Program-made: the position numbers and the translations under genes
Shown: piece after piece, positions 11,691-53,643 of the stretch
Layout of the letters: each line of letters opens with the position of its first letter
Position numbering within the stretch: the stretch's first letter is position 1
Assembly: GCF_963676685.1 (NCBI RefSeq)
Contig: NC_092352.1
Span: forward strand, 76,012,001 to 76,076,000
Length of the DNA: 64,000 bases
From: Mytilus edulis
Lineage: Eukaryota
Reading direction: 5' to 3'
Notes under the pieces: generated by a model
What the model was told of the DNA's origin: nothing
Seen by the model: only the letters and a program-made list of their open reading frames with translations
Databases searched by the model: none

Positions 11691-12654
11691 AATTCATGTA
11701 CAATCTCCTAACTATAGATGAAAACTCATTAAAAGAAAGGAAAAGATAAACAGGTAAGATAAGTAGAACGGCTTCTCAACGTCTTTGGTTTACATGATTG
11801 TCACAAGAAGATTTTATTCCTCATCAGGGCTTTGAATAACATCGATTTAAAAAAACAAATAAAAAGGAAGAGTAAGAACTAAACATCTAATTGCACTTTT
11901 GTTCAACGCGATCTCATAAAGAGTTTATGGACACACGTTATATGCCTTATCGGTTGTTATAACGGGCATTATTCCGCAAGCCCTATACACCCACTTGTTA
12001 TAATATTGTTGGAGAAAATTGCAATGTACAGAAAATAACAATTATATAAGATAAACAATTTGACTGTTGTGAACACTAATCATATAATCTCATTGTACCC
12101 TTGATAGCTTGGATTTACATCGTTACTAGGCTGCATTCCACTGATGACTTGTTGCAAAAGTTCAAAAAATTCTCCCTGGAGAATTAATTATTTCACTAGA
12201 TATGTAACAGCTAATTTTCCTACTAATAACGATAACATTAGAGATTCTAACTCGTTCTAAGAGAAAATATAAAAACACACTTTTGATTTTTGTTTTTGTT
12301 TTCTAGAGCAATGGTGTCAAATCAATAGCTGCTGCTTTCCTAGCTACATTCGATCGCATGTCAGCTGTATCAAGCAAAGGGATAAAACAGAAGTCAAAAT
12401 ACTATATAGTATTTGCAAATATTGTAATCCTTGTTGTTTAATACAATGACAATAATTTTTAAATGTATCTTCAATGACAGTTGATTGGATTTAATTTCCT
12501 ATGGTGGTACATATGCAGTGATAAATATTTACTGTTGTTTAAATCTGAAATCTGATTACAGACAGGGATTCTGTATCGGAGTAGTAGGTCGATTTACATT
12601 CAAGAATAAGTACCAATAAACTTATCATACATACAAGTCTTCATGTTGATTTTT

Positions 12655-12785
12655 TTACACCAGACGAACGTTTCGTCTATAAAAGACTAATCAATGACGC
12701 TTCAATAAAAAGCGAAAAAGGTCAAACAAAGTACTAAGTTGAAAAGCATTGTGGATCCAACATTTCGACAGGTTTTGCCAATATG
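12655..12785 (-). mobile_element. Degenerate retrozyme fragment (dead hammerhead at 12657-12700)
   Basis: Minus strand gcgtca-TTGATTA-GTCT..AGAC-GAAA-CGTTCGTC; core mutated; flank homologous to the 40.3 and 43 kb units. Confidence 0.6.
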
Positions 12786-17394: not shown

Positions 17395-17775
17395 TTATAA
17401 TCCTTGTACCTTATATAACTATTTACACCACTGGGTTGATGCTACTGATGGTAGACGTTGCGTCCCCGAGGGTATCACCAGCCCAGCAGTCAACACTTTG
17501 GTGTTAACATGAATATCAATCATATGGTCGTTTTCATAAATTTCCTGTTAAAAAAATGAATTTTTCGAAAAACTAAGGATATTGTTATCACAGGAATAGA
17601 TTACCTTAGACGTATTTAGCACAACGATTGGGAATTTTAGGTCCTCAATGCTCTTCAACTTTGTACTTGTTTGGCTTTATAACTATTTTGATCTGAGCGT
17701 CACTGATGAGTTTTATGTAGACTAAACGCGTGTCTGGCGTATTAAATTATAATTCTGGTACCGTAGATAATTATT
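17395..17775 (+). mobile_element. Retrozyme monomer, ~350-bp subfamily, inactive hammerhead (17697-17740)
   Basis: Terminal redundancy ttataatccttgtacc..tatt / ttataattctggtacc..tatt. gcgtca-CTGATGA-GTTT..AGAC-TAAA (G12>T)-CGCGTGTC-tggcgt. Confidence 0.75.
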
Positions 17776-34560: not shown

Positions 34561-34904
34561 TATTGGTTGAATTAGAATGGATCTAAGAAATAAACTCATC
34601 ATAGCCACCAGGATTAAATTTTGTATTTACGCTAAACACGCGTTTCGTTTACAAAAGAAATGATATTTTGAATGACAAAAATATGAAATGTTTATCTAAG
34701 ATTTCCATTTTTTTTTTCGTTATGTATATAAAAATATGGTGATGATTGCCAATAAGACAATAAACTTCCGTAAAAACCGAAGTACTGAACAATTACAGTC
34801 ATTGCAGAGCACTATACGGTTTACAAAAATAATACCATACATTAAGCCAAAATTTAAAAAAAGTAAAACGTTACATCCCTCGGATTTCAAATGTTTGGCT
34901 TTGG

Positions 34905-34946
34905 GCGTTCCTGATGAAGGTAAATCCAGAAAAGCGCTTCGAACGC
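34905..34946 (+). ncRNA. Minimal type I hammerhead ribozyme variant
   Basis: Stem I GCGTTC/GAACGC (6 bp perfect); CTGATGA; A-GG-taaat-CC-A; GAAA; palindromic stem III AAGCGCTT; cleavage after C34940. Confidence 0.65.
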
Positions 34947-40297: not shown

Positions 40298-40788
40298 AAA
40301 TAAACTCATCATAGATACCAGGACTTTATTTTGTATATACGCCAGACGCGCGTTTTGTCTACAAAAGACTCATCAGTGACGCTCGAATCCAAAAAAGTTA
40401 AAAAAAAAAAAAAAAAAAGGCCAAATAAAGTACGAAGTTGAAGAGCATTAAGAACCAAAATTCATAAAAGGTATGCCAAATACAGCTAAGGTACTCTATG
40501 CCTAAGGTGGAAAAGCCATAGTTTTCAAAAATTCAAAATTTTCTAAATTTATTAATATAACCATATCAATGATTATTCATGTCAGAACAAAAAGTAAGGA
40601 CTACTGGGCTGGTAATACCCTCAGGGAAATAAATCTCCACCAGCAGTGGCATCGACCCAGTGGTTGTAAATAAACTCATCATAGATACCAGGACTAAATT
40701 TTGTATATACGCCAGACGCGCGTTTCGTCTACAAAAGACTCATCAGTGACGCTCGAATCCAAAAAAGTTTAAAAGGCCAAATAAAGTA
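40298..40788 (-). mobile_element. Hammerhead retrozyme, 1.3 tandem units (370-bp period)
   Basis: Hammerheads at 40339-40382 and 40709-40752. Reverse complement of the 42.9-44.1 kb array. Confidence 0.9.
40709..40752 (-). ncRNA. Type I hammerhead ribozyme, intact
   Basis: gcgtca-CTGATGA-GTCTtttgtAGAC-GAAA-CGCGCGTC-tggcgt. Confidence 0.88.
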
Positions 40789-42018
40789 AATGGGTAATGT
40801 ACATTCGTAGAAGAATATTGTATCTAACAGTATTCATTTTGCAGACTTGAAAAAAGAATGTGGAATTGCCGTACAGGACAACTTTTTATGTATTCAACGC
40901 GAAACTTGATATTATAACACTCTGAGTTTTGACCCTGATACATCTAACGTCATTTGTCTAAAATCTTTAACTGAAGTCGCCTGACAATTCAACGTTCACC
41001 AGAGTACGCCTTTGATATAGATTAAATTAAATTGTATTTACTGAAGACCACCCTAGGAACAGAAAAGCACGCACCACTTCAGCAGCCGATAAACAATATG
41101 GCTTGATGTTCCTTTATGTAATCAAACTATTACCCTCCAAAAGGTCAACAGCTACTGCTGATGTAATATTATGTCTGTTTAAAATTCTTGATGAAAAATA
41201 TACAGTTATAAGGCGTTAAAAAATAGTGGACAGGCATATGTAAATGAATTATCATTTATTTACCTTTTTATTTCGGTATATGATGTGTGCATATGGAATT
41301 TAAAACTAAATGATCAAATAAACATTACAAGAATATAGATATTTTTTATTAAGTAGAGTATGTCCAACACAATAGAAAAAGCTTGCAATTCTTTTTATCA
41401 AATTTGAAAGATTTGTTGGACTCCGAAAAATAGAAATACATTGACGATTGGTTATGTCTATTGATTCCGTTGTCTTTTAATTGATGAAGTAAATTTATCA
41501 ACCTTTAAATATAGTAAGTGGACAAAACTGGTAGAATCGTATTACTTAACTACTTCAAAACCAATTTACATGCATGCGTTTACCGATTAAAAAACCAAAC
41601 CATTTCCTACTTCAAACAGATACCAAAGTGTTAAACCTGACAAACGTGTATGCATTTAGATCCTTCAAAACCAATCAGATTGTACTCTATTGAAAAGTAG
41701 TTCAGAAAATTAATTTGTCTGAAATCTACGGCATAAGAAAAGGTATGGTACGGCCATTACAATTCTGTACTAATCATATTATGTCACCCAAGCGGAAGAT
41801 GAAAATTTGTTATAGTCTAGTTGATCGTTGATTGCTGTACGCCCTCGCTGAAGTGTTTGTCATGTTCAATAAACTATAATCATAATTCAACTTCTGTCGA
41901 AGGAAGAGTCATCAAACGTTGACAAAGTGTCAAAACTGTAGGTGAAATTTTATTACGATTGTCATAAATCAGACGATGCTTTACTACCGTTAATCGTTAG
42001 TGTTTTGTTGTTGTAGTA

Positions 42019-42320
42019 AAAAGTAAAATCACAAAAATACTGAACTTAGAGGAAGATCAATTGGGAAAGTCCATAATCACATGGCAAAATCAAATAACAA
42101 AACGCATCAAAAACGAATGGACAAAAACTGTCATATTCCTGACTTGGTACAGGCATTTTCAAATGTAGAAAATGGTGGATTAAACCTGGTTCTATAGCGC
42201 TAACCCTCTCACTTTAATGACAGTCTCATCAATTTCCGATATTTTTACATGGATGCGTTAAATAAACAGACACAATAAATATAATAGTCAAAATATGGGT
42301 ACATCAGTCATCATCGTTTA
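42019..42320 (-). mobile_element. Family B copy with near-intact twister (42127-42224)
   Basis: P5 ACTGTCAT/ATGACAGT, P3 CATTTTC/GAAAATG, P4 CCTG/CAGG. T1 partner reads GGG instead of GGT (one mismatch). Confidence 0.8.
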
Positions 42321-42990
42321 ACAATTTTATTAATTTATAGTAATAGATTTAGATAAATAACTGATATTCAAATCTCATAAACTAAATCAAAAGATACAAA
42401 TCAAGGTTTATTTTTTTTAAATGAGGTCATCACATGAAAATGAGGCTATCACATGAAAACGAGGTTAAAATTCGGCGGAACCGGGCACGTCGGTAGATGA
42501 GCTAAAACAAAATAGTTGTTGAAATGTTCGTTGATTTTATATAAAACCAGTGTACAGAAAAAGACGTCATCATGGATAACAATACACGTAAGAAGATGTG
42601 GTATGAGTGCCAATGAGACAACTCTCTCATTCAAGTCACAATTGGTAAATGTAAACCATTACAGGTCAAAGTACGGTCATCAACACAGAGCCTTGGTTCG
42701 CACCGAACAGCAAGCTATTAATTTTTATTTGTTCCAATACCAAGTCTTTGATATAATTAAATATGACAAACGTATGTGTTATTATGGTTTAAACTGCATG
42801 CTGAACTATACAAAAATGAAAACAGAAACATCTTGATGTTTGGATCTTGAGTAAAGGGTTTTTATCTTTTCTTTATGATTTGTTCCCCTCTTGCTCTTTC
42901 TCATCAGTGTATTAAACACGTCTTCCTCATAAAAACAAATTCTCTTCAACTTCGAACTTTATTTGGCCTTTTTAACTTTTTTGGATTCGA

Positions 42991-43034
42991 GCGTCACTGA
43001 TGAGTCTTTTGTAGACGAAACGTGCGTCTGGCGT
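42991..43034 (+). ncRNA. Type I hammerhead ribozyme
   Basis: gcgtca-CTGATGA-GTCT/AGAC-GAAA-CGTGCGTC-tggcgt; GUC cleavage after 43028. Confidence 0.85.
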
Positions 43035-43663
43035 ATATACTAAATTTAGTGCTGGTATCTATGATGAGTTTATCTACAACCACTGGGTCGATGCCACTGC
43101 TGTTGGAGATATTTATTTCCCCGAGGGTATCACAAGCCCAGTAGTCAGCACTTTTTGTGCTGACATGAATTGTCATTGATATGGTTATAAATATAAATTT
43201 ACTGTTTACAAATTTTTTAATTTATTGAAATACTAAGGCTTTTCTACCTCAGGCATAGATAACCTTAGCTGCATTTGGCAAAACTTTTAGGAATTTTGGT
43301 CCTCAATGCTCTTCAACTTCGAACTTTATTTGGCCTTTTTAACTTTTTTGGATTTAAGCGTCACTGATGAGTCTTTTGTAGACGAAACGCACGTCTAACG
43401 TATATACTAAATTTAGTCCTGGTATCTATGATGAGTTTATTTACAACCATTGGGTCGATGCCACTGCTGGTGGAGATTTATTTCCCCGAGGATATCACAA
43501 GCCCAGTAGTCAGCACTTTTTGTGTTGACATGAATTGTCATTGATATGGTTATATTTATAAATTTACTGTTTACAAATTTTTGAATTTATTGAAATACTA
43601 AGGCTTTTTTTACCTCAGGCATAGATAACCTTAGCTGTATTTGGCAAAACGTTTTGGATTCGA

Positions 43664-43707
43664 GCGTCACTGATGAGTCTTATGTAGACGAAACGCGCGT
43701 CTGGCGT
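43664..43707 (+). ncRNA. Type I hammerhead ribozyme, intact with palindromic stem III
   Basis: gcgtca-CTGATGA-GTCTtatgtAGAC-GAAA-CGCGCGTC-tggcgt; cleavage after 43701. Confidence 0.9.
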
Positions 43708-46700
43708 ATATACTAAATTTAGTCCTGGTATCTATGATGAGTTTATTTACAACCACTGGGTCGATGCCACTGCTGGTGGAGATTTATTTCCCCGAGGGTA
43801 TCACAAGCCCAGTAGTCAGCACTTTGTGTGCTGACAGGAGTTGTCATTGATATGGTTATATTTATAAATTTACTGTTTACAAATTTTTGAATTTATTGAA
43901 ATACTTAGGCTTTTCTACCTCAGGCATAGATAACCTTAGCTGTATTTGGCAAAACTTTTAGGAATTTTGGTCCTCAATGCTCTTCAACTTCGAACTTTAT
44001 TTGGCCTTTTTAACTTTTTTGGATTCGAGCGTCACTGATGAGCCTTTTGTAGACGAAATGCGCGTCTGGCGTATATACTAAATTTAGTCCTGGTATCTAT
44101 GATGAGTTTATATACATATTTCTTTTAAACCTGCATCAAAAGAGCATTTACAATTTTTTTTTTATTCTTGAAAAAGTCGATCATTTACATATACATTTCA
44201 TTACAAAAGTCTTGTCCTTCCCAGAAGAATATCACTTTTCCTAAATGCCTTCATTTTGATATAAGAAACACAAACACCTATCTCTATTATTCCATTATTC
44301 TTCTTTACTGTACATATACCATTGAATACTTCTTGCCTTACAAAACAAATAATCTTTGAATTTCTGTAGCAAAAACCAATGACAAAAAAAAAACCATTTT
44401 CCTTCAGTAAATGTTAGAAATTCTAAGAAAAACGTTCTCAAAAAGAAAACGGCCTATAGTATGCAATGATTTCATTTATAATCAAAGAGCATTTCAACTA
44501 AATCACAGCACGGCAGTAATCCTCTGGGTGATTAAAACAAAGTCATCTTAAAGTTTAAAAAAGAGCTCATATTTTGCAGCAATGAAGCCATATTACGTGA
44601 AACTTGACATGGAACGAATAGGATTTGTGCGGATAACAAGAATCACTGCAGTTTTCATCATTAACTACGGGAAAAAAATACCCATTAATGATAACATAAC
44701 GACATAGTCACAAACAAGCTCATTTGTCATTGGACAATCGATAATCTCAAGGTCAAAGAGAACAAAACTTTCGTAGAAAAAATTAAGCAACATTGTCTAT
44801 TCAGTTAATGACCCAATACTGTAATGATCAATTAAATTAAAGGGAATAAACGTCCCTCTAGTCGATTATTTGAAATAGCCATGTCAAATGGAATATCATC
44901 GCAGACCTAGTAGTTGTATCTGCATCACGTGGTAAGAATTCTCTGCTGATTGTTAATCGTGTGGGTGCATGAGGAAAGCACATTAATTTCTTTCTTTCAA
45001 GAAAATGTTGTATTGTTTTTCATCGAAAAATAAATAGATTGATTCTTCATTTCATGGAATAAAAGAAAAGAATATAACATGTATACTTTCACCTCAAACA
45101 ATAAAATAGTCGGTTCAAGTGCTTATGTCTGACAAATCAAAAACGCAGTAGAATACACAGTGCAAATGTTATTACTTTCGAAGCACTTTTGTCAATAGAT
45201 AAACTATTACCAGGAATGTTAAATATCAAAACTGAAACAAGCCTTGGAAAGATCACTTAAAGCGCTTACTAAACGAAAAAATTTTGACAAGACCAATAAT
45301 ATAATATGATAATCACAACGTTTCCACTACACAGATAAAGTGAATTTCAGAAAACTATAGATTGTATTACCTCTTAAGTACCATTAAATATTGTGGATTT
45401 TAATATAAAAAAAAATATTTCAGCTACTCACTTGATGGAGTAAAGTAATCCGTCATTTTTCGGGGATTGATAATGATTGCATCAATGTTTTTATACTTTA
45501 AGGGTTTGTTAAGCTGGGTATTACTGCTAAGTAACACATTATTATACTTTTTTCATGAAACAGCTACACCATTAGAATGGAAACTCCCTTTTTTGGTCGG
45601 ACTGCGTTAAACGCGCGATAAACCTAGTACGATGATTTTGCTCGGACGGAGTGAAATGGATGCCACGTTTATGTTATTGGCTACTCCCAAAACTGCACTG
45701 ACAGGTTTCAACCATGTTGAAGTTTCAACATACTATTATGGAAGGTTTAAGATTTTTTTATCTATTTTTCTAGACCAGGTAACAGACGAATTGTTTTTTT
45801 TTTTAGCAAAATATTCTTACGAAGATTACAGTTTTGTGACCGTTTTTTTTTACCAAGATCCCTGAAAACTCACACATACATTAAAGTTGTTCAATTTTCT
45901 GACCTAGGAAATCAAGTGATTCTTCAACACAATTTGCATGAAATAATACCAAAATATTTTCTTTGAGAACAATTTACTGAGGTTGGGGGTATGATTTGAT
46001 ATTCATTTATTGTATTCATTTTTCCTGCAATTCATCTAAGTTTGGTTTAAATGGGACAAATGTCAATCTGTACTGATAAATTGTCTTCTATTGCTCAAAA
46101 CTATTTTGCTTTGATGTAATATGTATCCACATTTGTAAAAACGGTTAGCAATTTGCTGAATTTTAAATATCAATTCACTTAACTATCTATTTTGAAATTT
46201 TTGTAAACTTAAAGATATATACAAATGTACTTTAGGGCGTATCTAACTTACATATAACCATTTTTCTACAGAAGAACTATCACACACGTGGTATTACTCG
46301 TAAAATAGTTCAGTTGCCTTAGTTGATCAGTAAATGTTTACCCTTCCAAAGTATGTAAGTTCATCCCATTTGGGATATGGTCGTTGTTCTGATTTGTGAA
46401 TTGATGTTTGTTGCTGCAGCAACTTCTTTGCGTCTTAAGGCTTTTCCGTCTTAATTGACGTGCAGTTTTTTAAAATGCCCTCGTGTCTTCACACTTTTAA
46501 AGGATTAAAACCCTCACTGTTGAATAGATATAAACTGAATCAAGACTAAATTCATTGCTTACAATTCATTTTGAGATTTAGTTTGCTCTTAATAAAATAG
46601 CTTTTGTACTAGTGAACTCATGCCTCTTGTTGACCAGTCTACGATAATCAAAACATATTCAATAGATATAGGAAGATGTGGTATGAGTGCCAATGAGACA

Positions 46701-47402
46701 ACTCTCCATCTATCAAAGTAAACCATTATAGGTCAAGATACGGTCTTCAACACGGTGCCTATTCTCACACCGAACAGCAAGCTATAAAGGGCCTTAAAAA
46801 TTACTAGTGTAAAACAAGTTTGTTTAAAAAAACAATTCATACACAAAAGCACTTAATTCTTCTTCCATTGCGATTGTATATCATTTAACACACAATGAAA
46901 ATAGTTGAACATATGTAGATATAACATTGTCTACTGTATTGATATTACCAAACAGCAGACATTCCAAGATCAATACACAAGTAGATGTATATTACTACAC
47001 ATAAACATAGTAGTTATTATATTGAAACGCCATTTGACGTTTTAACTAGATTTTTAGCTTCATGTAATCAAAGCTATATTTGAGACTATCCTTATATTAT
47101 TGTTTAAGAGCTTACGGTTGAGATTTTGTCTGATATTTCCTTCTTATTCTGTTTCTCAAAGTATATAAATCAGAGTTTCCAATCACGTCAGTGAAATATT
47201 AGAACTAATATTCCTGGTGATCAGTAATCATCTTAAAAACACAATTATTTTAGAATATATCATCGATATCCATAAAAGTGGACAGACAGTCTGAAGTAAA
47301 ATTTAAGATATCAATAAATGCAATGGTAATAAGTGGATTTGAGATAAATATCTTTTGTGATTGACGACGATTGTGTTAATGAAGTAAGTAAGGAACGTCT
47401 GT

Positions 47403-48095: not shown

Positions 48096-51000
48096 AGCGA
48101 CAACCGTCACTATTACTTGAACCAGTATATTTATCTAATTTACATAATATTGCACTAACAACAAGGAATATTGTCTTGCTCAGAAAAAAAGAAGTTTAAG
48201 TAGTTAATACTAAAGGACATACTGAGAAGGACAATATTTCTTTAAACAATAAAGTTTTAATCCTTTATACCCTTCTACTGATACAAATATCGCATTACAT
48301 AATCACTATATGTTACATCGATAACAATAAAACCAGATTTAATCTACTGTTTTCTACATAAGGAAATACCTATACCATTCGTTTCGTGTGTTTGAGCTTT
48401 TGATTTCGCCATTTGATAAGGTACTTTCCGTTTTAAATTTCCTAGGAGTTGAATATTTTCCTTTTACACACATTTGGAAAATATTTCTGAAAGTTGTTGA
48501 ATCAATGTAGAGTGTGATTATTTTACAAAAAAATGTAATAATCTACTACACCCAAGTGATTATTATTTGAAGAAAATTACTTGTATCCAATCAAAATTGT
48601 TTTAGTCCGAGTACAGAGTCTGATTATTGTAATTTTACTTTACCAAAAACAGTGTGTGTGAAGTGCGGATCCTAAAATATCATTTTCACTGTATATGCCA
48701 TAAACTTCTGATGTAGAATGATAAATAAACAGACGATTTATTTTTGATTTTTGAAGAAAATGAAGAAAATTAGTTAAAATGTATATGTTTATAAATAAAT
48801 AAAAATAGTAAGACACTGTTAGAGATGCGAACGGGGTTTTATCGCGCCTAAAGACATCCAGCTGTGAACTATATACCGAAATAGGTGAATATTTAGGACA
48901 TTTCACAAACAGATCGTGCAGGTGATTTAAAACTAGCAGGTAAGATGTTGTTGCAGAAAAATATTCATTTTAACATAATTATTAAAGTTGTATAACGTAG
49001 AATAGGTTTTGTCATTCAGTTTCTTCATATTGAACTAAATTCCACTATGATGCTTGCTTTGTGCGAGTTATGTTTACTGTCGAATAATGATGCTATACTT
49101 TTTTTTTCACTGTAGAGCGATTAATTAGTATTGTATATGCGGTGCATTTTCACTATATGAATTTTATTATTTTTATCTATTAAAGTCTTGATTTAGCCGA
49201 CTTGCTCAAACATTAGATAAAAGTAAGAAAAGGATTTGATAAAGTTTAACTTGCGGAGGAAAGTTTGATTTAACACTCTAATAAATTTAATAGAAATAAC
49301 ATATATTTCAAATGTATTCCATTTAATTTCTTATAAATCGTAGGGATGTTTATCCTTGGTTTTATTTATCCATTTCCTTGACACTCCATCACTAATTAGG
49401 TACATCTTGATATAGATTAAACCGTTGGTTTTCCCGTTTGAAACGTTTTACACTGGGGCCCTTTATAACTTGCTGTTCGGTGTGAGCCAAGACTCCTTGT
49501 TGAAGACCGTATTTTGACCTATAATGGTCTACTTTTATGAATTGTGACTCGGATGGAGAGTTGTCCCATTGTCACATATGACATCTTCTTATATCTATCT
49601 ATGGCTCAAACCTAAACGGGATGGGATAAAAAGGGATAAAAAACACACTACTTTTCTAATATTTTTATAATGGGCTTGATATGAGTGTTGTCAAATCGTA
49701 CAATTTTGCCTAACCGGTTACTCGGATAGTCGTTCGACCGATTATCCGGTTAACCGGTAGTTTTAGTTCATGTTTGAGATCCTTACCTATAGTACACTAC
49801 AAGTGTTCGTTTTCATAATACGGATGAATTTTAAAAAATATAGAGAATGGAAATAGGGAATGTGTCAAAGAGACAACAACCAAACCAAAGAGCAGATAAC
49901 AGCCGAAGGTCACCCATGATTCTGCAACGCATTTGTCCTATTGCATTATACATGTCATAAGGATTGTCTGTGAGGAATACTGGCGAAGTTTGACTTTTAA
50001 TAATCCAATTCCACCGTACATACTATGGCGTTTGAAGATCTTTATATTGAAAAAAATGATTCTTTCTCTTTCTCTTGATGTCTAGAAAATAATGTGTGGT
50101 GTTTCAATTTTAAAATTAAGCCAGTTGCATCAAGTATACATTAATAACATTCACCTTGGTTTTAGTACAATTTTTTTAAGTTGACATTTCGTTTATCACA
50201 TAAATCTACAATAAAAATTCCTCGCATCTTCGAAAATTCTACATCAGAAATGATTGCACTAATAGTTAAAATAGATCGCTTTCAATAATCGATATGCTAT
50301 ATTATGTTGCTTTTATAACACTTATTTGAACTTTAATGCTATTTTTGTACATTAAAAAGAGATATCAAGATGAAAATATGTTAAATAAAGGCAACAGTAG
50401 TATACCGCTGTTCAAACTCATAAATCCATGGACAAAAAACAAAATCGGGGTAACAAACTAAAACTGAGGGAAACGCATTAAATATAAGAGGAGAACAACG
50501 ACACAACACTACAATGTAACACACACAGAAACGGACCAAGCATCAGACACAATCCCACGAGAATAAAAAATATAACATCAAAACCAAATAAATGAATTTG
50601 GGATAGACAAGTACCGTGACACGTCTTATCGCAATGTGAATTTACACTCAAAAATAAGAGAAAACAAAACTTTCCTTCAAATAAATTATTTTAGTATTTT
50701 CGAAACGTAAACAAATACAGTTTTCCCATGATCCTTTATTCTACAATAGACATACTCGCATATGATAGTGAAAATGAACTAGCTGGATTCGCACTTTATA
50801 TACACTGAAATAGGACAAAACTTTTTAGTAAACCAAACATTTGACAACAAAGGATATATAAGCCTAAATATGCAGAGAAATATATGTCGAAAGGGACCTA
50901 AACAAATAGACAAATTCATTTTAGGTCGACATTACTAGAAAGAGTTTTAATGCTCAAGAATTTCTATATTTATCAACAGAAAAATGACGAACGTTAGTTA

Positions 51001-52055: not shown

Positions 52056-53317
52056 TTAATCCTCACACAAAACGTTCACAGCCAATTTCGAAACCCGAAG
52101 ATGCTCGAATAAAGGAAGGAGGAATATTATCAACAAATCAAATCTAAATATATATATCAAAATAGCAAAAAACCATGCGAGTTTCCATATCCTTAAAAGA
52201 GTTATAACTCTAGATTAAAAAAACACCTTTTCTTTTTATCTATATGAATGAAAATTTTTGAGACTTCTGTAAAATTATAACCCTGGTAGCTTTGATGAGT
52301 TATGCTACTGTTATTAGGTATGTAATAAAAAAAGATAACAAATTTGATATAACTCTCATTGTTTTTGTAAACTAAAAAACAAATTTCTAATAGTCCTGGT
52401 AACAATATTTTTATGGCTATTAAATATCCTGCACTCTTCAGAAACAGTGAGTGATTTTATGTATTGGAAAATCGATGACGGTGATAATGACCGTGGCGAT
52501 AGATGTTAGCTGCAAGCTATGAAGGAATATTACGAAAAGAGTTCACTAAACTAGATTAAAAACACATTATATTGTTTCTGCATCCCCTCCCTTGGGAAAT
52601 CTGCACTGATTACTGAAATGAAACTTCACTATCATTTTCTTGATGAATGAGACTGATCCAATAGACCATCAAAAATTGAAATTTGAGGAAACATCCAACA
52701 CTTTTTCAATTTATCTTATACCTTTATCAGTGTGGTTTCGGAATAGTTTTTATGGTTGTAATTTTGCGATATGGTTATGTTTTAGATCGTTCTGATACAA
52801 TCTGCGTCATTATAAAGTTGTTTCTAATATCTGAATAAAGATCGTATCTGTAAACTTTAACTCTAGACATCATTTTATATCCTCATTGTATTTAAAAACG
52901 ACAAAATAAAAAAAATAAGTGTATCTTTTATATATTGATATGTTTATATCTATACTTAATCAAAATGTTATACTAGTATATAAAATGGTTGTAAGGAATC
53001 AGAGTGTTATTAAAAAAATAACCATGTGGATTTCAGCAAATCATAACACGTTAATCCAAACAGTGAAAGAAAAAAAACCTTGATGTAGAAAAACATCGAT
53101 TTTTTTTTTAGCAAATATAGCAATTTTATTCAATCGTTTGCAAAATAAGATACGAGTAAATGCATTTCCCCCACAAGAAATATTACCAACATCTGTGTAT
53201 TAGACTTATTGTATCAAGGTATAGTCCTTTAATGATGCTAGTTTGTCATACTGGCATGAAAATACGGATTTTTTTGTGTTATTAAAATTTGCTGTTACAA
53301 AATGATAGAAATTTTTT

Positions 53318-53597
53318 TTTGGACCTTTTAAATTATAGCTCTTCATCTTTTATATAAGCTTTGGATTTCAAATATTTTGGCCACGAGCATCACTGAAGAG
53401 ACATTTATTGTCGAAATGCGCATCTGGGGCAAGAAAATTGGTACCGTATTTGGCTGTACTTTTTGGACCTTTTAAATTATAGCTCTTAATCTTTTATATA
53501 AGCTTTGGATTTCAAATATTTTGGCCACGAGCATCACTGAAGAGACATTTATTGTCGAAATGCGCATCTGGGGCAAGAAAATTGGTACCGTTAATTT
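53318..53597 (+). mobile_element. 144-bp tandem dimer carrying two hammerheads (53387-53430, 53531-53574)
   Basis: gcatca-CTGAAGA-GACAtttatTGTC-GAAA-TGCGCATC-tggggc in both units. Confidence 0.8.
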
Positions 53598-53643
53598 CAT
53601 TGTCATTGTCCTTACAAATTATTTTAAAATACAAATACAGAAC

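Follow-up and report, generated by a model that had tools for sequence, protein, structure and literature searches.

The window analysed here is a stretch of 64,000 nucleotides of the Mytilus edulis genome (contig NC_092352.1, positions 76,012,001 to 76,076,000, forward strand), and contains at ~42938–44116 (+) a tandem array of roughly 3.4 head-to-tail units of ~365 bp, each with a type I hammerhead ribozyme. The original prediction, made from the letters of the window, read this as a retrozyme array, and that reading is supported; it had missed the two informative features, a fixed 3′ end and an RNA hairpin shared with the Naiad clade of Penelope-like elements (PLEs). The array comprises the following features.

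42938–44116 (+): retrozyme insertion, with its 5′ start mid-unit (unit position ~275) and its 3′ end at the fixed point of the family
42991–43034 (+): hammerhead 1 (type I), intact; Rfam 29.8 bits; predicted cut after 43028
43082–43142 (+): Naiad-type hairpin of unit 1, with a 2-nt insertion and one G-to-T change
43358–43401 (+): hammerhead 2, with a stem I C-A mismatch and a broken stem III palindrome; Rfam 25.9 bits; predicted cut after 43395
43449–43507 (+): Naiad-type hairpin of unit 2
43650–43651 (+): deletion breakpoint in unit 2, with 59–60 nt lost between AACTTTT microhomologies
43664–43707 (+): hammerhead 3, intact, with a perfect 8-nt stem III palindrome; Rfam 33.0 bits; predicted cut after 43701
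43755–43813 (+): Naiad-type hairpin of unit 3, matching the start of Naiad family A at 84% identity over 64 nt
44029–44072 (+): hammerhead 4, with a stem II C-A mismatch and a stem III U-G wobble; Rfam 21.5 bits; predicted cut after 44066
44067–44116 (+): 3′ tail, +1 to +45/50 past the cut site, stopping just before the expected start of the next hairpin (the inferred start point of reverse transcription)

The CTGATGA cores start at 42997, 43364, 43670 and 44035, confirming the four type I hammerheads and the spacing of 367, 306 and 365 bp originally predicted, and C17 of the four copies lies at 43028, 43395, 43701 and 44066, such that the putative cleavage sites proposed at 43028 and 43701 are correctly placed. 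All four retain the type I core (CUGANGA / GAAA / NUH; stem I open, stems II and III closed); as had been claimed, core and stems are undamaged in copies 1 and 3 as monomers, and stem mismatches occur in copies 2 and 4. The mismatch described in stem I of copy 2 is a C-A and is accompanied by loss of the stem III palindrome, those described in copy 4 are the C-A of stem II and the U-G of stem III, and the ~60-bp deletion ascribed to unit 2 is present after 43650. The Rfam Hammerhead_1 model (RF00163), named as a check, matches all four copies at 21.5–33.0 bits (E 1.5e-5 to 0.093), although none reaches the gathering score of 34 bits and the window contains no match at the gathering threshold, all matches being by E-value only. 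Stem III can be drawn either as two pairs and a tetraloop or as an 8-nt palindrome through which copies could pair with one another, with duplex energies of −8.8, −3.1, −13.3 and −9.7 kcal/mol for copies 1–4. The active fold is absent from the minimum-energy folds of isolated hammerheads and circles, which say little about cleavage, and the array contains no open reading frame (ORF) of at least 90 aa.

Judged by its sequence, the array is almost certainly a copy of the published mussel family of non-long-terminal-repeat (non-LTR) retrozymes, and both class and family are already known. The unit differs from the 375-nt Rtz of Mytilus galloprovincialis at ~4 positions in ~110 nt, with body and hammerhead also matching (compared by eye with the figure text in Additional file 11 of PMC4918200, without program alignment), which upholds the class originally predicted. 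It also shares the general properties of metazoan non-LTR retrozymes, with tandem non-coding units of 150–450 bp, one type I hammerhead in each, a GC content below 50% and many dispersed copies. One 34-nt variant of the core has 3,401 exact copies in the 1.37 Gb genome searched and its reversed control has none, and the array is therefore not a chance occurrence; arrays of the family are dispersed over many contigs. Static satellite DNA does not agree with the predominance of short, dispersed copies with one fixed end. The available text of PMC7229834 reports ~5000 such hammerheads in 350–390-bp repeats of M. galloprovincialis, slow self-cleavage (kobs ~0.1/min for a clone), ligation by RtcB in vitro, and abundant circles that dominate the RNA pool in mussel tissue, and proposes PLEs as retrozyme mobilisers.

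The anatomy of insertions was determined at 102 loci, with 7 dropped as overlapping duplicates; copy clusters of at least 85% identity and at least 80 bp, situated away from the locus edges, number 94, or 88 after removal of six with shared flanks. The 3′ end lies 43–54 nt past the cleavage site in 79 of the 88 copies (~3 expected if uniform), both for motif-selected (54 of 60) and best-hit (25 of 28) copies, and that of the present array is at +45 to +50. The 5′ starts are scattered, with the fullest 12-nt window holding 11 of the 88. Lengths form a continuum from less than 100 bp to ~10 units with one end fixed, and 51 of the 65 motif-selected copies contain a single hammerhead, as expected of 5′-truncated cDNAs. 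Such polarity, with a fixed 3′ end and variable 5′ ends, is the footprint of target-primed reverse transcription, and its combination with partial tandems is that of a non-autonomous PLE. Target-site duplications (TSDs) do not exceed the shuffled-flank control (at least 8 nt in 4/88 versus 10/435), although a lone 14-nt duplication (locus L080) may be real, and no target-site preference is seen, the AT content of 67% over 87 flanks being that of the window background. As regards the features that PLEs show optionally, a 30–40-bp tail or an inverted 5′ copy, the ends of the 88 copies form one narrow cluster with no second 3′ peak, and the inverted copy near the array is a separate insertion (see below).

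Units of the same array are more similar than units of different arrays (95.7% versus 93.6% identity across 13 arrays), and variants common to all units of an array occur in all 13, 60 in total, against a mean of 3.7 and at most 18 in 60 permutations. The present array has three such variants, and the array at L092 has 12 shared and no private ones. These array-shared variants fit repeated copying of one template.

The hairpin was recognised in Naiad family A, itself reached via a neighbouring ORF met by chance, which has 63,296 first-look candidates in the genome, intact ORFs of 1000 aa and a tandem period of 3,370 bp. Its GIY-YIG domain (aa 135–172; weak, E 0.04) is N-terminal to the reverse transcriptase (RT) domain (aa 645–854); families B and C encode ORFs of 1007 and 1053 aa with 56–64% protein identity and stronger GIY-YIG matches (E 1e-4 and 7e-7), and the translations contain the upstream Cys motif, a KR-rich block, CxC, GxKF/Y and DKA. 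The family A unit has no CTGANGA on its sense strand and hence no canonical hammerhead, and family B has one only as a decayed core in its 3′ untranslated region (UTR).

Retrozyme positions +45 to +114 are 83% identical (E ~6e-15) and in register with the first ~70 nt past the tandem junction and fixed 3′ end of Naiad A, with a Smith-Waterman score of 78 for retrozyme and Naiad A start compared to a maximum of 34 in 100 shuffles; sharing of terminal or junction sequence with an autonomous family of the same genome is again a property of non-autonomous PLEs. Both segments are predicted to fold into the same 23-pair hairpin of ~60 nt (z −3.0 for the retrozyme and −3.7 for Naiad A), which in the Naiad sits just before the start codon. 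The hairpin is common to three retrozyme and three Naiad families of this genome: Naiads B and C open with it, and it is also present in retrozyme families 2 (355 bp) and 3 (351 bp), whose ends are in the same register. Ends fall at offsets −6 to 0 of the hairpin in 61 of 62 Naiad A, 15 of 18 Naiad C, 9 of 15 Naiad B and 65 of 82 copies of the present retrozyme family, at −7 to +4 in 19 of 26 clusters of family 2, and at −3 to +1 in 7 of 8 of family 3. Among eight sequences from five families (three retrozyme, two Naiad), 98.9% of cells are paired and 7 of the 23 pairs have two-sided, compensatory changes, a number reached in none of 500 shuffles; a 13-sequence set without family B has three two-sided pairs, not above shuffles (170/500), with cell-level measures above shuffles. 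The supplement of PMC8557442 has 11 occurrences of the core motif, 10 of which lie close to the beginning of named Naiad consensus sequences (occurrences being counted, not a share of consensuses), and the species codes include oyster, mussel and two hemichordates. A fourth hammerhead family (550-bp unit), taken as a negative control, has no match to the Naiad hairpin.

Two further arrangements involve these elements. At L202:1-1213 an 83-bp tandem array of at least 14 copies of the Naiad hairpin alone lies directly before a full-length Naiad ORF, and may record repeated RT restarts or jumps. The 3′ UTR of the 1007-aa Naiad B (L283–L296; e.g. L284:5993-6233) contains a decayed ~240-nt retrozyme body, 70% identical, with a degraded hammerhead core and duplicated in some copies, which represents either capture of a retrozyme or a trace of retrozyme origin.

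The fixed end and the shared hairpin suggest that the array was likely inserted by the RT/endonuclease of a Naiad-type PLE that recognises the hairpin in RNA, and for the retrozyme family, on comparison of its sequences, Naiad-type mobilisation is quite likely. Transcripts of a source array would be cleaved by consecutive hammerheads, and the products ligated into circles of ~365 nt; a Naiad protein would bind the ~60-nt hairpin, nick DNA and prime cDNA at the hairpin base, ~47 nt 3′ of the cut and ligation junction; and RT would cross the junction, continue round the template and halt at a variable point, which would account for fractional arrays like the present one of 3.4 units. From this start, no more than ~47 nt of cDNA could be made on a cut linear monomer, such that longer copies would require a circular template, a multimer left uncut or a template jump. 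According to the available text of PMC11167929, reverse transcription by a purified PLE protein begins internally and needs ~55–60 nt of RNA 3′ of the start, with genomic ends marking start sites; the hairpin sits exactly where that PLE needs RNA, from which we infer that the Naiad protein binds it and primes at its base. In its general form, the proposal is that the hairpin is a Naiad RT-binding and priming signal conserved from molluscs to hemichordates, and that mussel circles carry it past the ligation junction and are copied by a hammerhead-less Naiad enzyme via rolling-circle reverse transcription; here the balance tips just in favour.

Several points weigh against Naiad-type mobilisation through circles. 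Binding and priming are deduced from sequence comparison and a predicted fold, and the covariation set is small, consists of related sequences and was aligned to a structure drawn from two of its members, which favours that structure. The hairpin is present in all three Naiad families and thus singles out none as the partner; that of Naiad A is only 83% identical to the retrozyme hairpin, and Naiad A is much younger (96–100% protein identity among copies) than the retrozyme family (~94% DNA identity between arrays). RNA evidence comes from three raw runs of short reads, which cannot separate circles from tandems, from other animals, possibly of another species, and with strandedness not established. 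Family reads are present in all three, as a family-level signal only, and 95–96% of placed reads run on into unlike sequence; the three runs give no locus-specific support, flanking bins being at zero depth, and no pile-up of read ends at cut sites, and the diagnostic letters of the array are rare (e.g. 3 of 146 first-mate-plus reads at 43993 in run X21). Letters private to the array include those at 43224, 43261 and 43322. Five read ends at 43396 in run X24 were considered as a cut site and are better explained by clipping at two private mismatches of copy 2. Naiad reads span all 30 bins and are heaped at the 3′ end on both strands, the pattern expected from passive transcription of truncated copies and no proof of activity. 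Lastly, uncut RNA is the main in vitro template of the anole PLE (PMC11167929, in the text available), and local duplication or a linear multimer template would also yield array-shared variants.

A circular template is, on balance, favoured over an uncut multimer. That the Naiad enzyme instead copied an uncut linear multimer or read-through transcript, with hammerheads and circles as a side product, is a less likely but substantial alternative, which departs from the circle model in the template only, most of the evidence being common to both. Insertion in vitro persists in PLE hammerhead mutants (PMC11167929, as far as available), Naiads form tandems without a canonical hammerhead, and the mussel ribozymes are slow (kobs ~0.1/min), all of which would suit an uncut template; dominance of the tissue RNA pool by circles, and arrays of near-identical units with many array-private variants, such as that at L092 (12 shared, 0 private), speak for circles. 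It is improbable that tandem form is uninformative on RT and arose by unequal crossing-over or slippage from a short insertion, in the manner of a satellite. The higher similarity within than between arrays is compatible with such local expansion, the unit 2 deletion is a microhomology-driven change at the locus, and the available text of preprint 10.64898/2026.07.22.740005 proposes local amplification; however, the length continuum from less than 100 bp to ~10 units has one fixed end, arrays are dispersed over many contigs, and the high proportion of single-hammerhead copies (51 of 65) is that of 5′-truncated cDNAs.

Scarcely more probable is that the retrozyme is of Naiad ancestry, its hairpin being either vestigial or an element for promotion, translation or stability, and is copied by a different RT, that of a canonical hammerhead-bearing PLE or a long interspersed nuclear element (LINE). 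The position of the hairpin just before the Naiad start codon would be consistent with such a role, the 70%-identical retrozyme body in the Naiad B 3′ UTR indicates that Naiads and retrozymes exchange sequence, and intact PLEs with a C-terminal endonuclease are present in the genome. Non-coding repeats would not keep a translation role, however, and three families of non-coding retrozymes have 3′ ends in register with those of Naiads; BLAST of 20 GIY-YIG loci gave ordinary retrozyme copies only and no shared element end, and there is neither a poly(A) tail nor a TSD, unlike LINE products. Mobilisation by a Naiad-type enzyme is therefore preferred to copying by another RT.

A canonical C-terminal-endonuclease PLE was tried as the partner and rejected: the GIY-YIG search revealed intact PLE ORFs with RT and endonuclease, and none of 20 loci (19 of that type, one Naiad; a small sample of 858 candidates) shares the tail or the hairpin. 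Several of the 20 carry hammerhead-like cores of their own, and in a 755-aa PLE family (L133, L148) such a core lies ~800 nt past the stop codon, with apparently coding sequence between. The fourth hammerhead family (L233–L262; unit in L233) has a 550-bp unit and a ribozyme close to that of family 3, and many of its copies end in (TA)n; two of them adjoin (TA)n runs that C-terminal-endonuclease PLEs (L139, L141) also border, a hint that the partner of this family is another one.

The array resembles the M. galloprovincialis retrozyme in its type I hammerhead, 350–390-bp tandem unit, low GC content and thousands of copies (PMC7229834; PMC4918200, in the parts available). The text available from PMC7229834 gives no fixed 3′ end, Naiad hairpin or specific partner, PLEs being proposed only, and mentions longer TSDs 'when present', whereas here none exceeds chance. 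In Xenopus, retrozymes and PLEs have terminal sequence in common, and hijacking of PLE enzymes by the retrozymes is proposed (Li, Clavereau, Pollet, bioRxiv 10.64898/2026.07.22.740005); in the available text of that study the similarity is to PLE pseudo-LTRs (pLTRs), the focus is on vertebrates with no mollusc sampled and Naiad in coral only, and neither 3′-end mapping nor RNA structure is included, whereas the mussel partner would be a clade without canonical hammerheads and the shared part is a hairpin rather than a ribozyme. Naiads, described as lacking canonical hammerheads (Craig et al. 2021, PMC8557442), resemble the array in 5′ truncation, partial tandems, 3′-end register and the opening hairpin, and differ in that the array is non-coding, 365 bp in unit length and has a canonical hammerhead; Naiad family C of this genome starts like Naiad_Mgal, and the available portion of PMC8557442 contains no description of the hairpin. 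The Anolis Poseidon element PAc (Frangieh et al. 2024, PMC11167929) likewise has an internal start of reverse transcription downstream of the hammerhead, requires RNA 3′ of the start and has ends that mark starts, but, in the text available, is autonomous, belongs to another PLE clade and uses two start sites giving a 30–40-bp tail, unlike the single narrow end cluster here.

The element family is published and the new part is its pairing with Naiads; no paper was found that states the retrozyme–Naiad hairpin link, although supplementary files of PMC7229834 and of the preprint may mention shared ends. Since 2020 it has been a question by which enzyme the retrozyme circles of animals are copied and at which point this enzyme primes when the RNA has no 3′ end; a mapped start point, a hairpin with covariation and young Naiads with intact ORFs in this genome make it directly testable in vitro. 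If correct, the hairpin would be the first cis signal for Naiads found in the literature searched and would provide a defined enzyme–signal pair for an animal circular-RNA retroelement; a ~60-nt tag turning an RNA circle into a template for DNA insertion could serve as a tool.

The array likely lies antisense within an intron of a claudin/PMP22-family gene that likely spans the window. The last exon of this gene is at 1864–2508 (−), a first-exon-like match lies on the same strand 3.8 kb past the window end (G000:C9:76079784-76079936, −), and the profile stretches matched by the two are complementary. We take the product, which ends in -TTPV, to resemble calcium-channel gamma/TARP subunits. Host read-through would, with the array likely antisense, give the non-catalytic strand. 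Release of unit-length monomers by read-through transcription, as originally predicted, is doubtful at this locus, since each of the monomers (43029–43395, 43396–43701 and 43702–44066) needs two adjacent cuts, one of them always by damaged copy 2 or 4; the sole product for which both cuts fall to intact ribozymes is the 673-nt dimer 43029–43701. The insertion is probably ageing and quiet, and a weak or silent source.

A second copy of the same retrozyme family lies in inverted orientation 2.1 kb upstream of the array.

40300–40787 (−): older, separate 1.3-unit copy with the same fixed 3′ end; upstream hammerhead intact (core at 40746), downstream GAAA changed to AAAA

It is only 88% identical to the array and thus a separate insertion; it shares its strand with the likely host gene and, going by the sequence of its hammerhead, could slowly cut nascent intron RNA. 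Further retrozyme copies at 17395–17775 (+), 53249–53601 (+), 12615–12781 (−) and 34588–34657 (−) correspond to family 2, family 3 and two fragments, and all four end at the fixed 3′ point of the family; the family 3 copy (351-bp unit) has an internal duplication of 144 bp with two hammerheads. At 34903–34945 (+) a minimal hammerhead-like motif stands alone, with a short stem II and of another sequence type. The window is rich in Naiad ends, with 3′ fragments of family C (98% identity) and family B (93%) near the array, at 42017–42329 (−) and 50382–50634 (−), and ~15 more. Another very abundant short interspersed repeat is located at 42580–42721 and 46660–46788, and RNA read depth at 42548–42621 is greater than that of the retrozyme.

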